Assembly: GCA_964389595.1 (NCBI GenBank) | Contig: CAYMEL010000002.1 | Span: 20,278 to 84,277, forward strand | Reading direction: 5' to 3' | From: an uncultured Chlorobium sp. | GTDB lineage: Bacteria > Bacteroidota > Chlorobiia > Chlorobiales > Chlorobiaceae | Length of the DNA: 64,000 nt | Shown: in pieces, positions 24,670 through 58,807 of the stretch | How positions within the stretch are numbered: position 1 is the stretch's first letter | How the letters are laid out: every line of letters starts with the position of its first letter | Program-made: the position numbers and the translations under genes | Notes under the pieces: model-generated | Databases searched by the model: none | What the model was told of the DNA's origin: nothing | Seen by the model: only the letters and a program-made list of their open reading frames with translations

Positions 24670-25818
24670 TTGGGTTTGCATTGCTATGTACACATTCCTT
24701 TCTGCAGGGAACGATGCAGTTACTGTGATTTTTTCCTCGTAACGAGACAGGATCTGCAGGACCGTTTTTTTGCTGCGCTTCATGAAGAAACCGCCCAAAG
24801 GTTTCCTGATGATGGAGGGAGCACCGTTTCCTCAATTCATTTCGGGGGCGGAACCCCGTCTTTGGTTCCCGTTTACTTTCTGGAAGAATGGCTCGGAACG
24901 CTTTCAAGGCATGCTACGCTGAGTGACAGCGTAGAGATCACCCTTGAAGCGAACCCTGAGGATCTGACCCCTGAAAAACTTTTTGAACTTGCTGCTCTGG
25001 GTGTGAACCGGCTCAGTATCGGAGTGCAGTCTTTTATTCCTGAAAAGTTACGGGCACTGGGGCGTTTGCATACTGCCGGGGAGGCTTTGCGTGTGACAGA
25101 CAGGGCACTGCACCTGATTGGTAATGTCAGTGTCGACCTTATCTGCGGTGCCGAAGGGGAGTCTCCCGGGGTCTGGGAGCGGGACCTGGGTACATTTGTA
25201 TCCAGCGGCGTACCGCATGTATCGGTTTACATGCTTACCCTTGAGAAAAAGACACGGCTTGAAAGTCTCGCAAGAAGGGGATTGGTGTCTCTGCCCGATG
25301 AGAGTGTCCAGGCTGTCATGTATATGAAGGCATGTGAACTGCTTGAAGCTGAAGGGTTTGAACATTATGAGGTTTCGAATTTTTCAAAACCGGGATTCTT
25401 TTCCCGTTATAATCTGGGATGCTGGCAAAGGGAATCGTATCTTGGTTTCGGTCCCTCCGCGCACAGTTTTGTTGTTTCTGGAAGTCGTGAAGTGCGAAGT
25501 GCGAACGTCAGCAGCCTGATACGCTATATGGCGTCTCCGCGGCAGGCTCAGGAGCATCGTGAAGTGCTCTCTCCGGAAGAGCAGATCGATGAGATGATTT
25601 TTCTTTCCCTGCGGCTTTCAGCCGGATTAGGATGCGAGGATCTGCTGCGTTTTCATAAAGGAAACCGCGATGTGCTCCAAAGAGTGGAGCGCTTGAAGGA
25701 GCAGGGTTTGCTTGAAGTTCGTGACTCTGTCTTAAAGGTTTCAAGCAGAGGGTTTCTGTTTGCAGACAAAATTGCAGAAGACCTGCTGCCCGCAGGAACA
25801 AGTCGGCAGGAAAAATGA
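24670..25818 (+). CDS. hemW: radical SAM heme chaperone HemW
   Basis: YVHIPFCRERCSYCDF, HFGGGTPS, RLSIGVQSF, HYEVSNF, GFGPSAHS. Confidence 0.88.
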   Translation: MGLHCYVHIPFCRERCSYCDFFLVTRQDLQDRFFAALHEETAQRFPDDGGSTVSSIHFGGGTPSLVPVYFLEEWLGTLSRHATLSDSVEITLEANPEDLTPEKLFELAALGVNRLSIGVQSFIPEKLRALGRLHTAGEALRVTDRALHLIGNVSVDLICGAEGESPGVWERDLGTFVSSGVPHVSVYMLTLEKKTRLESLARRGLVSLPDESVQAVMYMKACELLEAEGFEHYEVSNFSKPGFFSRYNLGCWQRESYLGFGPSAHSFVVSGSREVRSANVSSLIRYMASPRQAQEHREVLSPEEQIDEMIFLSLRLSAGLGCEDLLRFHKGNRDVLQRVERLKEQGLLEVRDSVLKVSSRGFLFADKIAEDLLPAGTSRQEK

Positions 25819-25841
25819 CTAATGACTATTTACTACTGAAT
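25814..25841. repeat. imperfect 7-nt tandem units (AATGACT type)
   Basis: AATGACT AATGACT ATTTACT ACTGAAT spanning the hemW stop. Confidence 0.6.
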
Positions 25842-25913
25842 ATTGGGTAAGGGGTGATAAACCTGTTATTAGAGTTGCTGTCGAGCCGACCGGCTGTCCG
25901 GCAATTATAAAAG

Positions 25914-49073: not shown

Positions 49074-49075
49074 AT

Positions 49076-49118
49076 TATAGGACCTGTAAGTCTCCTATAG
49101 GTCCCATAGGTCTTATAT
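49076..49118. repeat. imperfect 9-nt tandem units (YNTARGWCY)
   Basis: TATAGGACC TGTAAGTCT cc TATAGGTCC CATAGGTCT TATAT. Confidence 0.7.
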
Positions 49119-49152
49119 ATTAAGATTGTATGCTTGTTAAAATGCGCAAGGT

Positions 49153-50310
49153 ATGTTGCTCACCTACCAGCTTATAATCCTTTGCTGCCTCCTGGTATTC
49201 CTGGCAATACTGCTCCTGAACCTGAAGGAACTGCCGGTGCTGCCACCGGTTTCCGACGAGGCCGAACAGCCAAAGGTTTCCGTGCTGGTTCCCGCTCGTA
49301 ATGAGGAGAACAATATAGAGCGCTGTATAACCTCTCTCCTGCAGCAGGATTATGCCAATTATGAACTGATTGTTCTGAATGATGGTTCGACCGACCGTAC
49401 AGGAGAAATCCTCGAGAGGCTGCAGCAGGAAGACAAGCGGTCACTTCTCCGGATACTGGACGGTAAGCCGCTTCCGGAAGGCTGGCATGGCAAGGCATGG
49501 GCCTGCAATCAGTTGGGAAAAGCTGCCAGAGGCGAGTTCCTTGTTTTTACCGATGCCGACACCTTTCATTCATCTGACAGTCTTTCGCGCTCCGTTGCGG
49601 CCATGCGCCAAAGCGGTGCGGATATGCTCTCCATGACTCCCCGCCAGGAGATGCATTCATTCTGGGAAAAGCTCATCGTTCCATTGATCTATTTCATTCT
49701 TCTCTGCTATCTTCCCCTGAAACTAGTCTCTGCGACACCTGCACCTTCGCTTTGTTTCGCGAACGGTCAGTTCCTGATGTTCCGCCGCAGGATGTACAGG
49801 GAAATAGGCGGCCATAAAGCGGTGAGCCGCGATCTTGTCGAGGATGTATGGTTGTGCAAGGCAGTCAAGCGAAACGCCGGCAAGGTATTGAGCTACAACG
49901 GGATGGAGACGGTGAGCTGCCGGATGTACAGGAACTTTTCCGAGGTCTGGCAGGGTTTTTCGAAAAACCTTTTTGCAGGTCTTGGATACAGCACACCCCT
50001 TTTATTGATCCTGATGATTATCACGGTGCTTGTCTATATTGCTCCCTACGGCTTTCTCGTCAGCGCCTTCATCAGGGCCGATTTTTCACTCGCTTTATTC
50101 TGGCTGCCTCTGATGCAAATTTTCATTGCGCTTCTATGCAGGTTGTTGATTGCGCAAAGGTTCCAGCAGTCTATGCCTGAAGCGCTGCTGCATGTCTTTT
50201 CACAGATGGCACTCCTCGGCATCGCCGCGAACTCCTTTTTCCTGGTTACCTTCGGCAAGGGATCGCAATGGAAAGGGCGGAGGTATAACTTTTCGGGGAA
50301 GGGTGCATAG
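49153..50310 (+). CDS. cruC: GT2 glycosyltransferase, carotenoid (hydroxychlorobactene) glucosyltransferase CruC-like
   Basis: VSVLVPARNEE, NDGSTD, GWHGKAWAC, TDAD, ANGQ, VEDV, WQGFSKN; photopigment neighbourhood. Confidence 0.75.
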   Translation: MLLTYQLIILCCLLVFLAILLLNLKELPVLPPVSDEAEQPKVSVLVPARNEENNIERCITSLLQQDYANYELIVLNDGSTDRTGEILERLQQEDKRSLLRILDGKPLPEGWHGKAWACNQLGKAARGEFLVFTDADTFHSSDSLSRSVAAMRQSGADMLSMTPRQEMHSFWEKLIVPLIYFILLCYLPLKLVSATPAPSLCFANGQFLMFRRRMYREIGGHKAVSRDLVEDVWLCKAVKRNAGKVLSYNGMETVSCRMYRNFSEVWQGFSKNLFAGLGYSTPLLLILMIITVLVYIAPYGFLVSAFIRADFSLALFWLPLMQIFIALLCRLLIAQRFQQSMPEALLHVFSQMALLGIAANSFFLVTFGKGSQWKGRRYNFSGKGA

Positions 50311-50355: not shown

Positions 50356-50389
50356 TTGTGCTGAATCTGAAAAGGTTGCAAGAAAAACC

Positions 50390-50623
50390 ATGGGAACGAT
50401 AGCTGTCAGTGAATTGCGGGCTAATCTCAGAAAAGTGATGCGGCGTGTCGAACGTGGTGAAACACTTGATATCACTTCGATGGGAAAGGTGGTGGCGCGT
50501 CTTGTTCCGCCGGAAGACAAGCAGCGGGAATCGAGAAAAAAACTGAAGGAAATAGCACGAACGGCATCACTGCATGATGTTCTCTCTCCTCTCGGCGAAG
50601 AGTGGGAGGCAAACAAGCAATGA
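50390..50623 (+). CDS. Phd/YefM family antitoxin
   Basis: IAVSELRANL..VMRRVERGETLDITSMGKVVARLVP; ATG 50390; ATGA overlap with toxin. Confidence 0.88.
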   Translation: MGTIAVSELRANLRKVMRRVERGETLDITSMGKVVARLVPPEDKQRESRKKLKEIARTASLHDVLSPLGEEWEANKQ

Positions 50624-51015
50624 TCACTCTCGATACGCATGTGATTCTCTGGGATGCCTTGCAGCCGCAGATGCTCAGCAAAAAAGCAAGGGAAGCGATA
50701 GAAAAAGCAAATCAAACAGACGGTCTTTTATTCTGTTCGATCTCCCTGTGGGAAATAGCGATGCTGATCAGGAAAAAAAGGATTGAGGTCAACGTTCCCT
50801 ACAGAGATCTTGTTCAGCTCCTCTTATCGTGCAACAAGTATCTGTTTCAGGAAATAACTCCTGAAATAGCCGAGCTGTCAACAACTCTGCCCGACACGAT
50901 CAACAGCGATCCCGCCGACAGGATCATAGCAGCCTCATCCCTCATCACAAAAACCCCACTGGTAACAGCCGACGAGAACCTCCGCAAGTCGGAGTTGTTG
51001 CAAACGATCTGGTGA
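50620..51015 (+). CDS. VapC/PIN family toxin
   Basis: LDTHVILW, SISLWEIA, DPADRIIAA, LVTAD. Confidence 0.9.
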   Translation: MITLDTHVILWDALQPQMLSKKAREAIEKANQTDGLLFCSISLWEIAMLIRKKRIEVNVPYRDLVQLLLSCNKYLFQEITPEIAELSTTLPDTINSDPADRIIAASSLITKTPLVTADENLRKSELLQTIW

Positions 51016-51608: not shown

Positions 51609-51623
51609 ATAGAAGAGAATAAT

Positions 51624-51706
51624 GGACGAAAAGGACATAAGTGACATAAGGTAAGAGGGTAATATGTCTTTTTTCTTTTTCGTCCTTTAAGTCCTTTTTG
51701 TCATTT
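51624..51706. repeat. inverted arms built from 9-nt periodic units
   Basis: GAC at 51625/51634/51643 and GTC at 51682/51691/51700. Confidence 0.75.
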
Positions 51707-51718
51707 AAGGAGATTGTT

Positions 51719-52288
51719 TTGACTGAAGGTTTTATTCCGCCGCATGGGGGTTACAAGGAATTGCTTTCTTACAAGAAAGCACAAATTGTCTATGATGCCA
51801 CGGTTCGTTTCTGCGAGCGGTATATTCGGACAGGCGACCGTACCTATGACCAGATGGTTCAGGCTGCACGGTCAGGGAAGCAGAACATTATCGAGGGGAG
51901 CCAGGCTTCAGGAACTTCGAAGAAAATGGAAATAAAGCTGACCAGCGTGGCAAGAGCAAGTCTCGAAGAGCTGCTTGAAGATTATCGTGATTATTTGCGG
52001 TTAAGAGGGCTGGAAGAGTGGTCTCTCGATCATCCTTACACTAAAAGGCTGCGTGAATTGAACAAGCGGCCTGATGCTGACTATGAGACCTTTCGAAAAG
52101 GTATCGAGCATTCAGATCCGGCTATTGCGGCTAATGTCATTATAGGACTGATCAAAGTAACAGCTTACCTCCTCGACCGCCAATTGAAGCAACTCGAGAA
52201 AGCATTTGTTGAAGAGGGAGGATTGAGTGAACGTATGGTCGGTGCTCGTCTGAAAGAACGCTCAAAAAAGAAAAGACTTGAGCCATAA
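51719..52288 (+). CDS. four-helix-bundle protein (23S rRNA IVP / Avd-like fold) with TIGR04258-type suffix domain
   Basis: GFIPPHGGY..L.SY, DRTYDQMVQAARSGKQNIIEG, VARASLEELLEDY, EEGGLSERM; TTG 51719 with AAGGAG RBS. Confidence 0.85.
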   Translation: MTEGFIPPHGGYKELLSYKKAQIVYDATVRFCERYIRTGDRTYDQMVQAARSGKQNIIEGSQASGTSKKMEIKLTSVARASLEELLEDYRDYLRLRGLEEWSLDHPYTKRLRELNKRPDADYETFRKGIEHSDPAIAANVIIGLIKVTAYLLDRQLKQLEKAFVEEGGLSERMVGARLKERSKKKRLEP

Positions 52289-52482
52289 TCAAATATCAGG
52301 CTTGGCAAAGTTGTAATCATATTTAATTGTTCCTTGCGGAACTGGCAGTTTGTATGCAAAACCAAAAATCTTGCTGAATAAACAGTATCCCTCAAACAAT
52401 CCGTCTTTTTTTTTATTTTTAGGACTTACTGTGCAAGGCTGCGTTTTTTTCAACCATAGAAATTCAAATCTTCATTACCGTC

Positions 52483-53433
52483 ATGGGTCTTTTATCAAAA
52501 TTGTTCGGAAAGAAGGAGGAAGAACTGAAACTTCCCCAGGTCAGGGAGGATGAAGCGCTGATCAGGACACTCAAAGGGCACGAAGACCGGGTACTCGGGG
52601 TTCGGTTCAGTCCTGACGGCAAGAAGCTGGTAAGCGGCAGTTTTGATGAAAAAGTCATGCTGTGGGATATTGAAAGCGGCAATGCGCTGCACACGTTGTC
52701 AGGTCATACGACCTGGGTCAAGTGCGTTGACTACAGTCCCCTTGGGGACAAGGTTGCCAGCGGCAGTATCGACAGCACCGTGAGGGTCTGGGACGTTGAA
52801 ACCGGCGCATGCCTGCACGAGTGCAAGGGTCACGATACCGAGGTACGCATGGTTGCCTTCAGTCCCGACGGCAAAACCGTTGCGAGCTGTTCCCGCGATA
52901 CCACGATCAAGCTCTGGGACGTCGAGTCGGGTAAGGAGATAAAGACGCTAACCGGTCATATTTCCTATATAGAGTGTGTTGCTTTCAGCAGCGACGGGAA
53001 AAAACTGGTCAGCTGCGGTGAAGAACCGGTAGTTCGGGTCTGGGATGTCGAGAGCGGAAAAAATACGGCGAAGTATACAACGCGCGACAGGCACTCCTAT
53101 TCCGTCAGTTTCAGCCCGGACGATTCCTTGATCATACTCTGCGGGCGCGACGCGATGGTCAAGATTCTCGATGCGGCCAGCGGTGAAATAAAGCATATCA
53201 TGGAAGGGCACGAAGACGGTGTACGCAGCGTCCGGTTCAGCCCTGACGGTAAAAAAGCCGCAAGCGTTGCAAACGACGAATCGGTTCGTTTGTGGGACGT
53301 GGAAACCGGCAAGCAGATTCATGCCTACCGGGGCCACGTGCACGAAGTGCAGTCGGTCGATATTTCTCCCGACGGCAGCATGATCGTCAGCGGCAGCGAC
53401 GATCACAAGATCAAGCTGTGGAGGGTGAAGTAG
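52483..53433 (+). CDS. WD40-repeat beta-propeller protein
   Basis: Seven GH...FSPDG...SGS.D..V.LWD repeats. Confidence 0.93.
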   Translation: MGLLSKLFGKKEEELKLPQVREDEALIRTLKGHEDRVLGVRFSPDGKKLVSGSFDEKVMLWDIESGNALHTLSGHTTWVKCVDYSPLGDKVASGSIDSTVRVWDVETGACLHECKGHDTEVRMVAFSPDGKTVASCSRDTTIKLWDVESGKEIKTLTGHISYIECVAFSSDGKKLVSCGEEPVVRVWDVESGKNTAKYTTRDRHSYSVSFSPDDSLIILCGRDAMVKILDAASGEIKHIMEGHEDGVRSVRFSPDGKKAASVANDESVRLWDVETGKQIHAYRGHVHEVQSVDISPDGSMIVSGSDDHKIKLWRVK

Positions 53434-57411: not shown

Positions 57412-58671
57412 ATGGAACTCGAAGTCTGGCAAATACTGGGTATTTCCCTTGGCATAGGGCTTCTTGTCGGTCTTCAGCGTGAATGGTCGAAAGCCGAAGG
57501 GGCCGGGATTCGTACATACCCGATGATAACGGTTTTCGGTACCGTTTGCGCAATGCTTGCCGAGCGGTATGGTGGCGGCATCCTGTTTGCAGGAATGCTT
57601 GCAACAGGAGCGATGATGGTTGTGATGAAAATCTTAATGAACCTCAACCTCGCTGATTCCGAGCATCCGCATGCAGGCCTGACTACCGGCATAGCGGCGT
57701 TATTGATGTTTACCGTAGGGGCGATGCTTGCGACCGGTATTGTTGTTCCTGCAATAGCCATAGGCGGTGGTGTAGCGGTGCTGCTGCAGTGGAAAAAGCC
57801 TCTACACGGTTTTGTGCAACGGATCGGAAAGCAGGATATCCAGGCGATATTCCGGCTTGTGCTGATCGCCATGGTTGTACTGCCCGTTTTGCCGGATAAA
57901 AATTTCGGGCCTTTCGGGGTGTTAAATCCCTCGCATATCTGGCTTATGGTTGTATTTATTGTCGGTATCAGTGTCGGTAGTTTTTTGGTTGCCAAGTTCG
58001 TGGGGGCAAAAGCCGGGACATTGCTCGGTGGTATTCTGGGCGGTCTTATTTCGAGCACGGCCACGACGATCAGTTACGCGCGCAGGTCGAAGACGGTGCC
58101 GGGGACGTCTTCTCTTGCGGCTATGGTTATCATGATCGCATCGGCCATTGTCTTTGTTCGTGTCGGATTTGAAATTGCTGTCGTAGCGCCGGGGATCCTT
58201 CCGGACGTTCTCCCGCAGTTTGCTCTCATGTGTTTCTTTATGGCGATGATTGCGTCAACGGCCTGGTTTTTTGCCGGAGGGGAGAGGGGGGAACTCCCTG
58301 AAACGGAAGATCCGTCGGATCTCGGAGCTGCGGTTGCCTTCGGTGCTTTGTATGCTTTTGTTCTTGTTGCCGTGGCTGCAGCGAAAGAATTTTTTGGCGA
58401 CCAGGGGCTCTATGTTGTCGCCGCCTTGTCGGGACTCACTGATATGGATGCCATAACGCTCTCGACCGCAAGGCTGATAGAGGCGGAAAGGCTCGATATA
58501 GATACCGGCTGGAGGATGATGATGGTCGGGGCGATGTCGAATATCCTTTTTAAGGCCGGTGCTGTTGCCATCCTGGGCAACAGCAGGCTTTTCTATCGCG
58601 TTGCTTTGCTTTTCGGGATTGTGCTTGCCGGCGGGGCTGCGTTGGTACTGTTCTGGCCGAAGGTCGGATAG
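57412..58671 (+). CDS. MgtC/SapB family membrane protein with DUF4010
   Basis: LLVGLQRE, AGIRTY, GLTT, GGLISSTATT, SGLTDMDAI. Confidence 0.88.
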   Translation: MELEVWQILGISLGIGLLVGLQREWSKAEGAGIRTYPMITVFGTVCAMLAERYGGGILFAGMLATGAMMVVMKILMNLNLADSEHPHAGLTTGIAALLMFTVGAMLATGIVVPAIAIGGGVAVLLQWKKPLHGFVQRIGKQDIQAIFRLVLIAMVVLPVLPDKNFGPFGVLNPSHIWLMVVFIVGISVGSFLVAKFVGAKAGTLLGGILGGLISSTATTISYARRSKTVPGTSSLAAMVIMIASAIVFVRVGFEIAVVAPGILPDVLPQFALMCFFMAMIASTAWFFAGGERGELPETEDPSDLGAAVAFGALYAFVLVAVAAAKEFFGDQGLYVVAALSGLTDMDAITLSTARLIEAERLDIDTGWRMMMVGAMSNILFKAGAVAILGNSRLFYRVALLFGIVLAGGAALVLFWPKVG

Positions 58672-58674
58672 CTC

Positions 58675-58702
58675 ATTGACTAATGACTATAGAATAATGA
58701 AT
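58675..58702. repeat. four imperfect 7-nt tandem units (AATGAMT type)
   Basis: ATTGACT AATGACT ATAGAAT AATGAAT just after the stop at 58671. Confidence 0.65.
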
Positions 58703-58807
58703 AATGGGGGCTGGTGAATAGTGGAGAGATGATGAGAAGAGCCATCTGAATTATTATGATGTTGTTTTACTTTTTCCTTTTGAATTTTGACTTAAAAGAA
58801 GAGAGCT

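Follow-up and report, generated by a model that had tools for sequence, protein, structure and literature searches.

A 64-kb stretch of DNA from an uncultured Chlorobium sp. (the window) carries a gene for a small four-helix-bundle protein directly behind two inverted arms built of 9-nt units. The question raised by this locus is whether the gene and the periodic hairpin form a cognate pair, as a sequence-only reading had proposed. The S23p/IVP/Avd-like four-helix-bundle proteins form a very large family whose function, outside DGRs, has been obscure ever since the discovery of rRNA intervening sequences; an explanation is likewise lacking for the short 7-9-nt tandem arrays seen between bacterial genes.

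All features of the locus lie on the forward strand. The left arm (51621-51651) consists of the units AATGGACGA, AAAGGACAT and AAGTGACAT (51621-51647), with the consensus AARGGACNN, followed by AAGG. A loop or spacer of 28 nt (51652-51679), poorly conserved between orthologues, separates it from the right arm (51680-51706), which contains the inverted units TC-GTCCTTT, AA-GTCCTTT and TT-GTCATTT (TRF period 9, 51682-51709). With GAC at 51625, 51634 and 51643 and GTC at 51682, 51691 and 51700, the exact 9-nt spacing of three triplets per arm described from the letters alone is confirmed, as is the end of the hairpin at the ribosome-binding site of the TTG start at 51719. This Shine-Dalgarno-like AAGGAG (51707-51712) abuts the right arm and looks like the beginning of another AAGGAC unit. 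The gene (51719-52288) encodes a four-helix-bundle 'suffix' protein of 189 aa and is followed by a 3' tail of about 97 nt (52289-52385), found only at gene-bearing sites. A block common to nearly all genomes of the genus, the upstream region of a WD40 gene, begins at about 52386. The arms had been expected to pair in several registers, and they are able to do so in any register, as 7-bp segments with 2x2 mismatches; however, this holds for the 7-nt cores only, since the two spacer bases of each unit are unpaired and the arms form no true palindrome. In the window the pattern GACn6GACn6GAC occurs in two places only, the two arms, against an expectation of 0.38. Because 6 of 100 shuffles reach two matches, this count alone is marginal.

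The encoded protein passes the cut-offs of both TIGR04258 (72.8 bits, cut-off 40) and TIGR02436 (27.3 bits, cut-off 24), and scores 23.1 bits against Pfam PF05635 (23S_rRNA_IVP), under the gathering score of 33.8. The best fold matches of its AF2 model, built on 73 homologues with a pLDDT of 89.5, were the S23p-family structures 2gsc (Xcc0516; probability 1.00, TM 0.77 on the target) and 2rld (BT_0352), so the proposed relationship to 23S rRNA intervening-sequence proteins stands. The top matches are S23p proteins, Avd is absent among the fold matches listed, and a PDB sequence search with the protein found nothing. No catalytic or recombinase domain is recognisable in the protein, family searches matching four-helix-bundle models only. 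The TTG start was confirmed by alignment with orthologues that start at ATG, and dN/dS values of 0.04-0.07 against the orthologues indicate a functional, strongly conserved protein. The remark that neither rRNA nor a reverse transcriptase is nearby was also correct: no rRNA occurs within the 64-kb window and no RVT_1 match in the whole genome, which is 99.8% complete. Rfam has no match in the hairpin region or anywhere else in the window, and because of this and the lack of a reverse transcriptase in the genome the gene is neither an rRNA intervening-sequence ORF nor a DGR Avd.

Some relatives have an additional domain. A paralogue in genome G021 (L031, G021:C1:341214-341822) has a topoisomerase-type zinc ribbon at its C terminus (PF01396, 38.6 bits), a pointer to a role in handling nucleic acids. 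Suffix proteins fused to or trailed by a topoisomerase-type C4 zinc ribbon are found at L031 and L043, and probably at L025, L039 and L040; arrays of GATCnGACn-type units are located near L025, L039 and L040 and also inside the L031 ORF.

Nonamer arrays beside TIGR04258 genes

One genome per species was scanned for homologues, which yielded at least 581 relatives. The flanks of the best 80 loci were searched for period-9 inverted arrays; their proteins share 54-76% identity, and their hosts belong to 14 phyla, including Verrucomicrobiota, Planctomycetota, Acidobacteriota, Bacteroidota, Ignavibacteriota, Thermodesulfobacteriota and Pseudomonadota. Within 250 nt of the gene ends of these best 80 of at least 581 loci, 116 strict GAC/GTC period-9 arrays were counted (3.00 per kb), compared with 10 in 361 kb of the farther flanks of the same loci (0.028 per kb). 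The density of strict arrays is therefore about 107 times higher beside the gene, a strongly positive outcome for the idea that homologues should be accompanied by such arrays. A strict array is present at 56 of the 80 loci and absent at 24.

The unit consensus A-A-R-G-G-A-C-N-N is found in both arms across the loci, usually in three or four units. In the layouts seen most often, a closed hairpin lies immediately 5' of the gene, as it does in the window, or the gene has a closed hairpin on either side, or the two arms enclose the gene; this last arrangement is found at 4-7 of the 80 loci. In closed hairpins the purine-rich AARGGAC arm comes first in 32 cases and second in one, an asymmetry identical on both strands. 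In 23 upstream hairpins of other loci, 0-69 nt separate the end of the right arm from the point where the protein match begins; in 21 of the 23 this gap does not exceed 42 nt. Type I restriction-modification operons contain about 14 of the 80 loci, and three of the 80 adjoin cas4-like genes, in agreement with the reported occurrence of the family in cas loci (PMC3936711).

The genome under study (G000) has three TIGR04258 paralogues and seven plain TIGR02436 genes. All three TIGR04258 paralogues have period-9 GGAC/GTCC arms, in three different layouts: both arms lie 5' of the gene in the window copy, the gene stands between the arms, one per side, in the copy on contig C128, and within the ORF of the copy on contig C84 both arms are in frame, in the loop that joins the bundle to the suffix helix. 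The latter (C84:6471-7112, L003) sits in a type I restriction locus. In the clade of L003, L026, L029, L041 and L042 a GTGGAC-type nonamer hairpin is translated in frame, for example as DGQSGQDGPDGKG...STSSTESTS. A looser pattern search of the whole 2.1-Mb genome found two closed nonamer hairpins, the window copy and the one inside the C84 paralogue, both thus at TIGR04258 genes, and no orphan closed nonamer hairpin.

The arrays found with the seven plain TIGR02436 genes have period 7 (once period 8) and a different sequence in each copy. A TRF array of period 7-9 lies within 200 nt of nine of the ten four-helix-bundle genes, a density of 1.51 per kb compared with 0.163 per kb genome-wide (about 9-fold). 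On a simple inverted-repeat score, two of the ten exceed the 99th percentile of random intervals and five the 95th; the statement that all four-helix-bundle genes are enclosed by hairpins was dropped as overstated, since the score is clearly above random for two to five of the ten only. Two of the heptamer-armed TIGR02436 genes, C104:434-757 and C15:8998-9321 (L006 and L008), are located in type I restriction loci, with imperfect direct repeats on either side that derive from the coding end of the neighbour: the start of an hsdR-like gene (PSEHKTVQ) is duplicated with an identical 24-nt core, and the end of an hsdM-like gene (KLKEIDR) with 18 of 21 nt matching. These repeats look like cassettes brought with donor flanks, or like unusually long target duplications.

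The proposed pair had further been suggested as an explanation of orphan 7- and 9-nt arrays at gene ends. For the many orphan 7-nt arrays this was not borne out, as only 12 of the 350 tandem arrays of period 6-9 in this genome are near four-helix-bundle genes; several are at contig ends. Examples have the units GACTATT, GACTACT, CAGTTGG and GACTGCC, and such arrays lie at 25805-25850 and 58670-58800 of the window. An orphan period-9 array at about 49075-49125, between hisG and a glycosyltransferase gene, reads ...TATAGGACC TGTAAGTCT CCTATAGGT CCCATAGGT CTTATATA... and is of the ATAGGAC/GTCCTAT type, which in relatives (L036, L038) is found bracketing a second TIGR04258 clade.

In order to compare the arrays with the descent of the proteins, the unit variant, AAR-GGAC or CAA-GGAC versus ATR-GGAC (A or T at position 2), was mapped on a tree of 82 proteins. 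It requires 7 changes, versus 21.3 with shuffled labels, and none of 1000 shuffles reached 7. Host phylum requires 33 changes over 69 rows and 14 phyla. The unit variant therefore follows the protein clade and not the host phylum, and gene and arrays have moved together, also across phyla. Residues that separate A-type from T-type protein clades gather at positions 100-147, a comparison without statistical power because it comprises only three independent contrasts.

At the level of whole genomes, the strict closed-hairpin pattern was found in 13 of 21 gene-bearing and none of 20 gene-less genomes among 41 relatives, and in 13 of 32 gene-bearing and 3 of 169 gene-less genomes in a phylum sample of 201 (p = 1.5e-9). 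These comparisons show that the arrays are associated specifically, almost exclusively, with the TIGR04258 gene family in many phyla. The same package of gene and repeats recurs in at least 14 bacterial phyla; therefore the protein probably recognises these repeats as its own sites, and the two probably travel together as one horizontally transferred unit. The reading preferred here, at slightly better than even odds (about 0.55), is that the hairpin and the TIGR04258 gene constitute one co-inherited module, with the family-specific AARGGACNN arrays as predicted binding sites, which would spread horizontally.

Gain and loss of the cassette and gene-less hairpins

Of 19 genomes of the genus, 18 have the WD40 gene (52483-53433) that lies downstream of the window gene, and in G018 and G016 its immediate upstream neighbour is the glycosyltransferase gene (49153-50310 in the window). 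In the window these two genes are separated by a Phd/VapC pair, a frameshifted ORF, the hairpin and the four-helix-bundle gene. The pair (50378-51015) comprises a Phd-family antitoxin (TIGR01552) and a PIN-domain VapC toxin. The ORF at 51172-51607 matches no family, is apparently frameshifted near its 3' end and stops just before the left arm; it is missing at the G005 locus and partial in G015. Homology to the G013 and G005 loci starts at 51625, the first GAC of the left arm.

Between flanking blocks common to both genomes, G013 has 783 nt, comprising hairpin, gene and tail, where G009 has 17 nt. The junctions show at most an A-rich repeat of 5-7 nt, and neither a clean target duplication nor a recombinase was found. 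Remnants of the gene at this site are present in G015 (left arm and gene start), G007, G017, G002, G004 and probably G008. The expected pairs of filled and empty sites thus exist within the genus, and the comparison of these genomes shows the unit of hairpin, gene and tail of about 97 nt to be present, absent or decaying at one chromosomal site. The filled and short sites and the remnants therefore show that the cassette is gained and lost as a unit, with loss being frequent. A second locus, in G007 and G011, has an orthologue between two near-identical hairpins, the second of which is followed by a duplicated gene start. No empty version of this site was found; what follows the outer-membrane-protein gene is different in each genome, with no solo hairpin.

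Hairpins without a gene bear directly on the main rival to a cognate module, namely that the nonamer hairpins are independent small elements, either MITE/REP-like or bidirectional RNA-end or terminator hairpins, beside which the gene landed as a passenger, its protein not reading them. Copies of this kind are found in G022 and G024, with 6-9 gene-less hairpins of mixed unit variants located after gene ends or between converging genes, as this rival would have it. Viewed as MITE-like candidates, they differ from each other and have no clear target duplications. G085 has 11 matches to the closed-hairpin pattern. One relative, G199, a 2.7-Mb genome of the same family, has 17 strict-pattern matches, which amount to about a dozen ATGGAC-type closed nonamer hairpins; a TIGR04258-type gene was not detectable in it even by a profile search with 73 sequences. 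Hairpins can therefore outlast the gene or exist without it. The gene can stand within the hairpin or next to it, or can itself contain the hairpin; this variation in layout fits independent elements as well, and so does the G007/G011 arrangement of a double hairpin and a duplicated gene start, as expected from recombination at a pre-existing hairpin. Set against this are the tracking of protein clade by unit variant across phyla, the location of both closed hairpins of the present genome at paralogues, with no orphan, and the near absence of hairpins from gene-less genomes (3 of 169). The core motif is, moreover, conserved in 14 phyla, unlike the prediction for a host-specific terminator or MITE. 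Independent hairpins are thus regarded as an unlikely explanation, the co-inherited module being preferred.

Three nonamer hairpins of G024 (C6:582, C10:147 and C11:146) share a left flank of about 110 nt, with C11 differing in the last 10 nt or so. Because the flank is shared and two of the hairpins are about 145 nt from a contig end, the trio is part of a larger, assembly-breaking repeated element.

Conservation of the array motif

Selection on the arrays was examined by pairwise comparison of the hairpins of G000, G013 and G005, with six units each. The genes of G013 and G005 are intact and their proteins 90-93% identical to the window protein, while 47-56% of synonymous sites have changed (pS 0.47-0.56). 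Unit positions 1, 2, 5, 6 and 7 show no differences in 90 pairwise comparisons; positions 3, 4, 8 and 9 show 27 in 72, about the neutral level. It follows from this contrast that the AA..GAC motif is conserved in both arms.

Complementarity of unit positions 1-4 was compared between registers in 40 hairpins. It amounts to 0.74 in the paired register and to 0.72 and 0.71 in unpaired registers, the cross-locus control being 0.51. Because the values are equal in paired and unpaired registers, the complementarity beyond the consensus results from homogenisation of the units and not from base-pair covariation; register-specific covariation was not found in the 40 hairpins. Complementarity of the spacer bases is at chance (0.29 versus 0.26). 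Mismatches of the G:T type (31) are as frequent as those of the A:C type (32), so there is no G:U excess, and therefore nothing that points to the sense RNA in particular. A selected base-paired stem was accordingly dropped as a candidate, complementarity being the same across registers. These comparisons show that the core bases of the array are maintained by selection, which in the aligned sequences acts on the motif and not on specific base pairs. The resulting picture is that of a run of identical 7-nt sites with two free bases between them. On the preferred explanation the arrays are cis-sites maintained for their sequence, most probably as binding sites of the protein encoded next to them. 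For the proposed cognate pair this means that co-inheritance and selection on the array at the sequence level speak for it, whereas the pairing of the hairpin itself shows no sign of selection.

The same data bear on the possibility that the hairpin is an RNA structure with no cognate protein, the stem serving, as in 23S rRNA intervening sequences, for RNase III processing or for stabilisation of mRNA 5'/3' ends, so that the cassette transcript is freed and protected from read-through transcripts. [quoted passage not shown] The predicted RNA fold of the window hairpin is stable (-29.8 kcal/mol, z = -2.9), with none of 200 shuffles as good. Closed hairpins lie in the presumed 5' leader at the short distances given above (0-69 nt, at most 42 nt in 21 of 23), often occur after the stop codon as well, and in the window no promoter-like site separates hairpin and gene; a scan for promoter and terminator consensus sequences found nothing convincing in or near the hairpin. 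An element acting through structure alone would not, however, preserve the same 7-mer across phyla, and such a role accords poorly with the missing register-specific covariation, the 2x2 mismatches every 9 nt and the lack of a G:U over A:C excess on the sense strand. Selection is seen on the AA..GAC bases and not on pairing, position 4 being free and often mismatched. An RNA-only role is therefore considered improbable, somewhat more so than independent hairpins. Functionless arrays produced by neutral slippage or chance, for which the marginal count within the window and the 350 arrays of period 6-9 in this genome could be cited, are for practical purposes refuted by the 107-fold enrichment, the conservation contrast (0/90 versus 27/72), the 32:1 orientation and the tracking of protein clade.

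A candidate module and comparable known systems

In the co-inherited module preferred here, the encoded protein would form an Avd/S23p-like ring, probably reading one unit per protomer. Protein bound to the left arm (as RNA) or to both arms (as DNA) may feed back on the expression of the gene itself, because the closed hairpin abuts the start codon and ribosome-binding site; autoregulation is a reasonable guess for the local role of the hairpin. The module would spread horizontally, probably via recombination at such hairpins and not by an enzyme of its own. A more ambitious version is put forward tentatively, as doubtful in its full extent. It holds that TIGR04258 proteins are sequence-specific readers of AARGGAC arrays with a clade 'code' (AAR-, ATR-, CAA- or GTG-GAC), and that they belong to a selfish, recombinase-less module. 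This module would cross at least 14 phyla via hairpins, seed gene-less hairpins, and be a free-living sister of the ORF-bearing rRNA intervening sequences.

The best reading of its affinities is that the module is related to ORF-bearing 23S rRNA intervening sequences. With those of Coxiella burnetii and Leptospira (PMC4990558) it shares the protein superfamily (four-helix bundle, PF05635/TIGR02436), a small ORF with inverted arms made partly of short tandem repeats, and a patchy distribution with ORFs prone to decay. Intervening sequences are inserted in helix 25 or 45 of the rRNA, whereas the window element is outside rRNA, with a toxin-antitoxin pair and a WD40 gene as neighbours. The repeat period is 9 here and 7 there, and the AARGGAC core is conserved across phyla here. 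The window protein, of 189 aa, has the TIGR04258 suffix architecture, and its ORF is located outside the stem, both arms being upstream, in contrast to the intervening-sequence ORF, which the arms enclose.

By analogy, the best precedent for a protein-hairpin pair is Avd with its stem-loop. In the Bordetella phage DGR, all five protomers of pentameric Avd grip an 11-bp RNA stem-loop, with flipped-out bases between the protomers (bioRxiv 10.1101/2023.10.23.563531). The two proteins have related, S23p-like folds, and the imperfect RNA stem-loop bound by Avd is encoded near its own gene (bioRxiv 10.1101/2023.10.23.563531). Unlike avd, the window gene is not beside a DGR reverse transcriptase, in a genome with no RVT_1 match and no template or variable repeat, and its putative site is a periodic array, whereas that of Avd is a single 11-bp stem.

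Systems of REP/REPIN and RAYT resemble the present one in a low-copy gene flanked by its own hairpin-forming repeats, and in ORF-less copies scattered in some genomes, which almost always have the gene. The window protein, however, is no HUH/Y1 transposase and lacks any known catalytic motif, and the orphan copies vary in sequence and are missing from this genome. Short operator repeats read by small oligomeric proteins are known from the omega heptads of pSM19035, the ParR/parC iterons and TRAP on GAG repeats. Their units of 7-11 nt form direct or inverted runs of about 3-5 beside the regulator gene, with a conserved core and free spacers. The nonamer arrays share with them the short units near their own gene, the conserved core and the free spacer bases, binding being putative here. 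They differ in that the proteins of those systems have other folds (ribbon-helix-helix, TRAP), and in the lack of a partition or attenuation context.

A search of the literature found nothing on TIGR04258, nor on nonamer arrays accompanying TIGR04258 genes; heptamer-bearing rRNA intervening sequences and unexplained heptamer repeats are already in print (PMC4990558, PMC4692102). From the locus and its relatives comes a concrete hypothesis open to experiment, with one subfamily, one 7-nt core every 9 nt, and known selected positions. If the predicted binding is true, a function would be assigned to the family, the pair would represent a protein-repeat module of a new type, mobile between phyla, and the protein would offer a compact means of programmable array binding.
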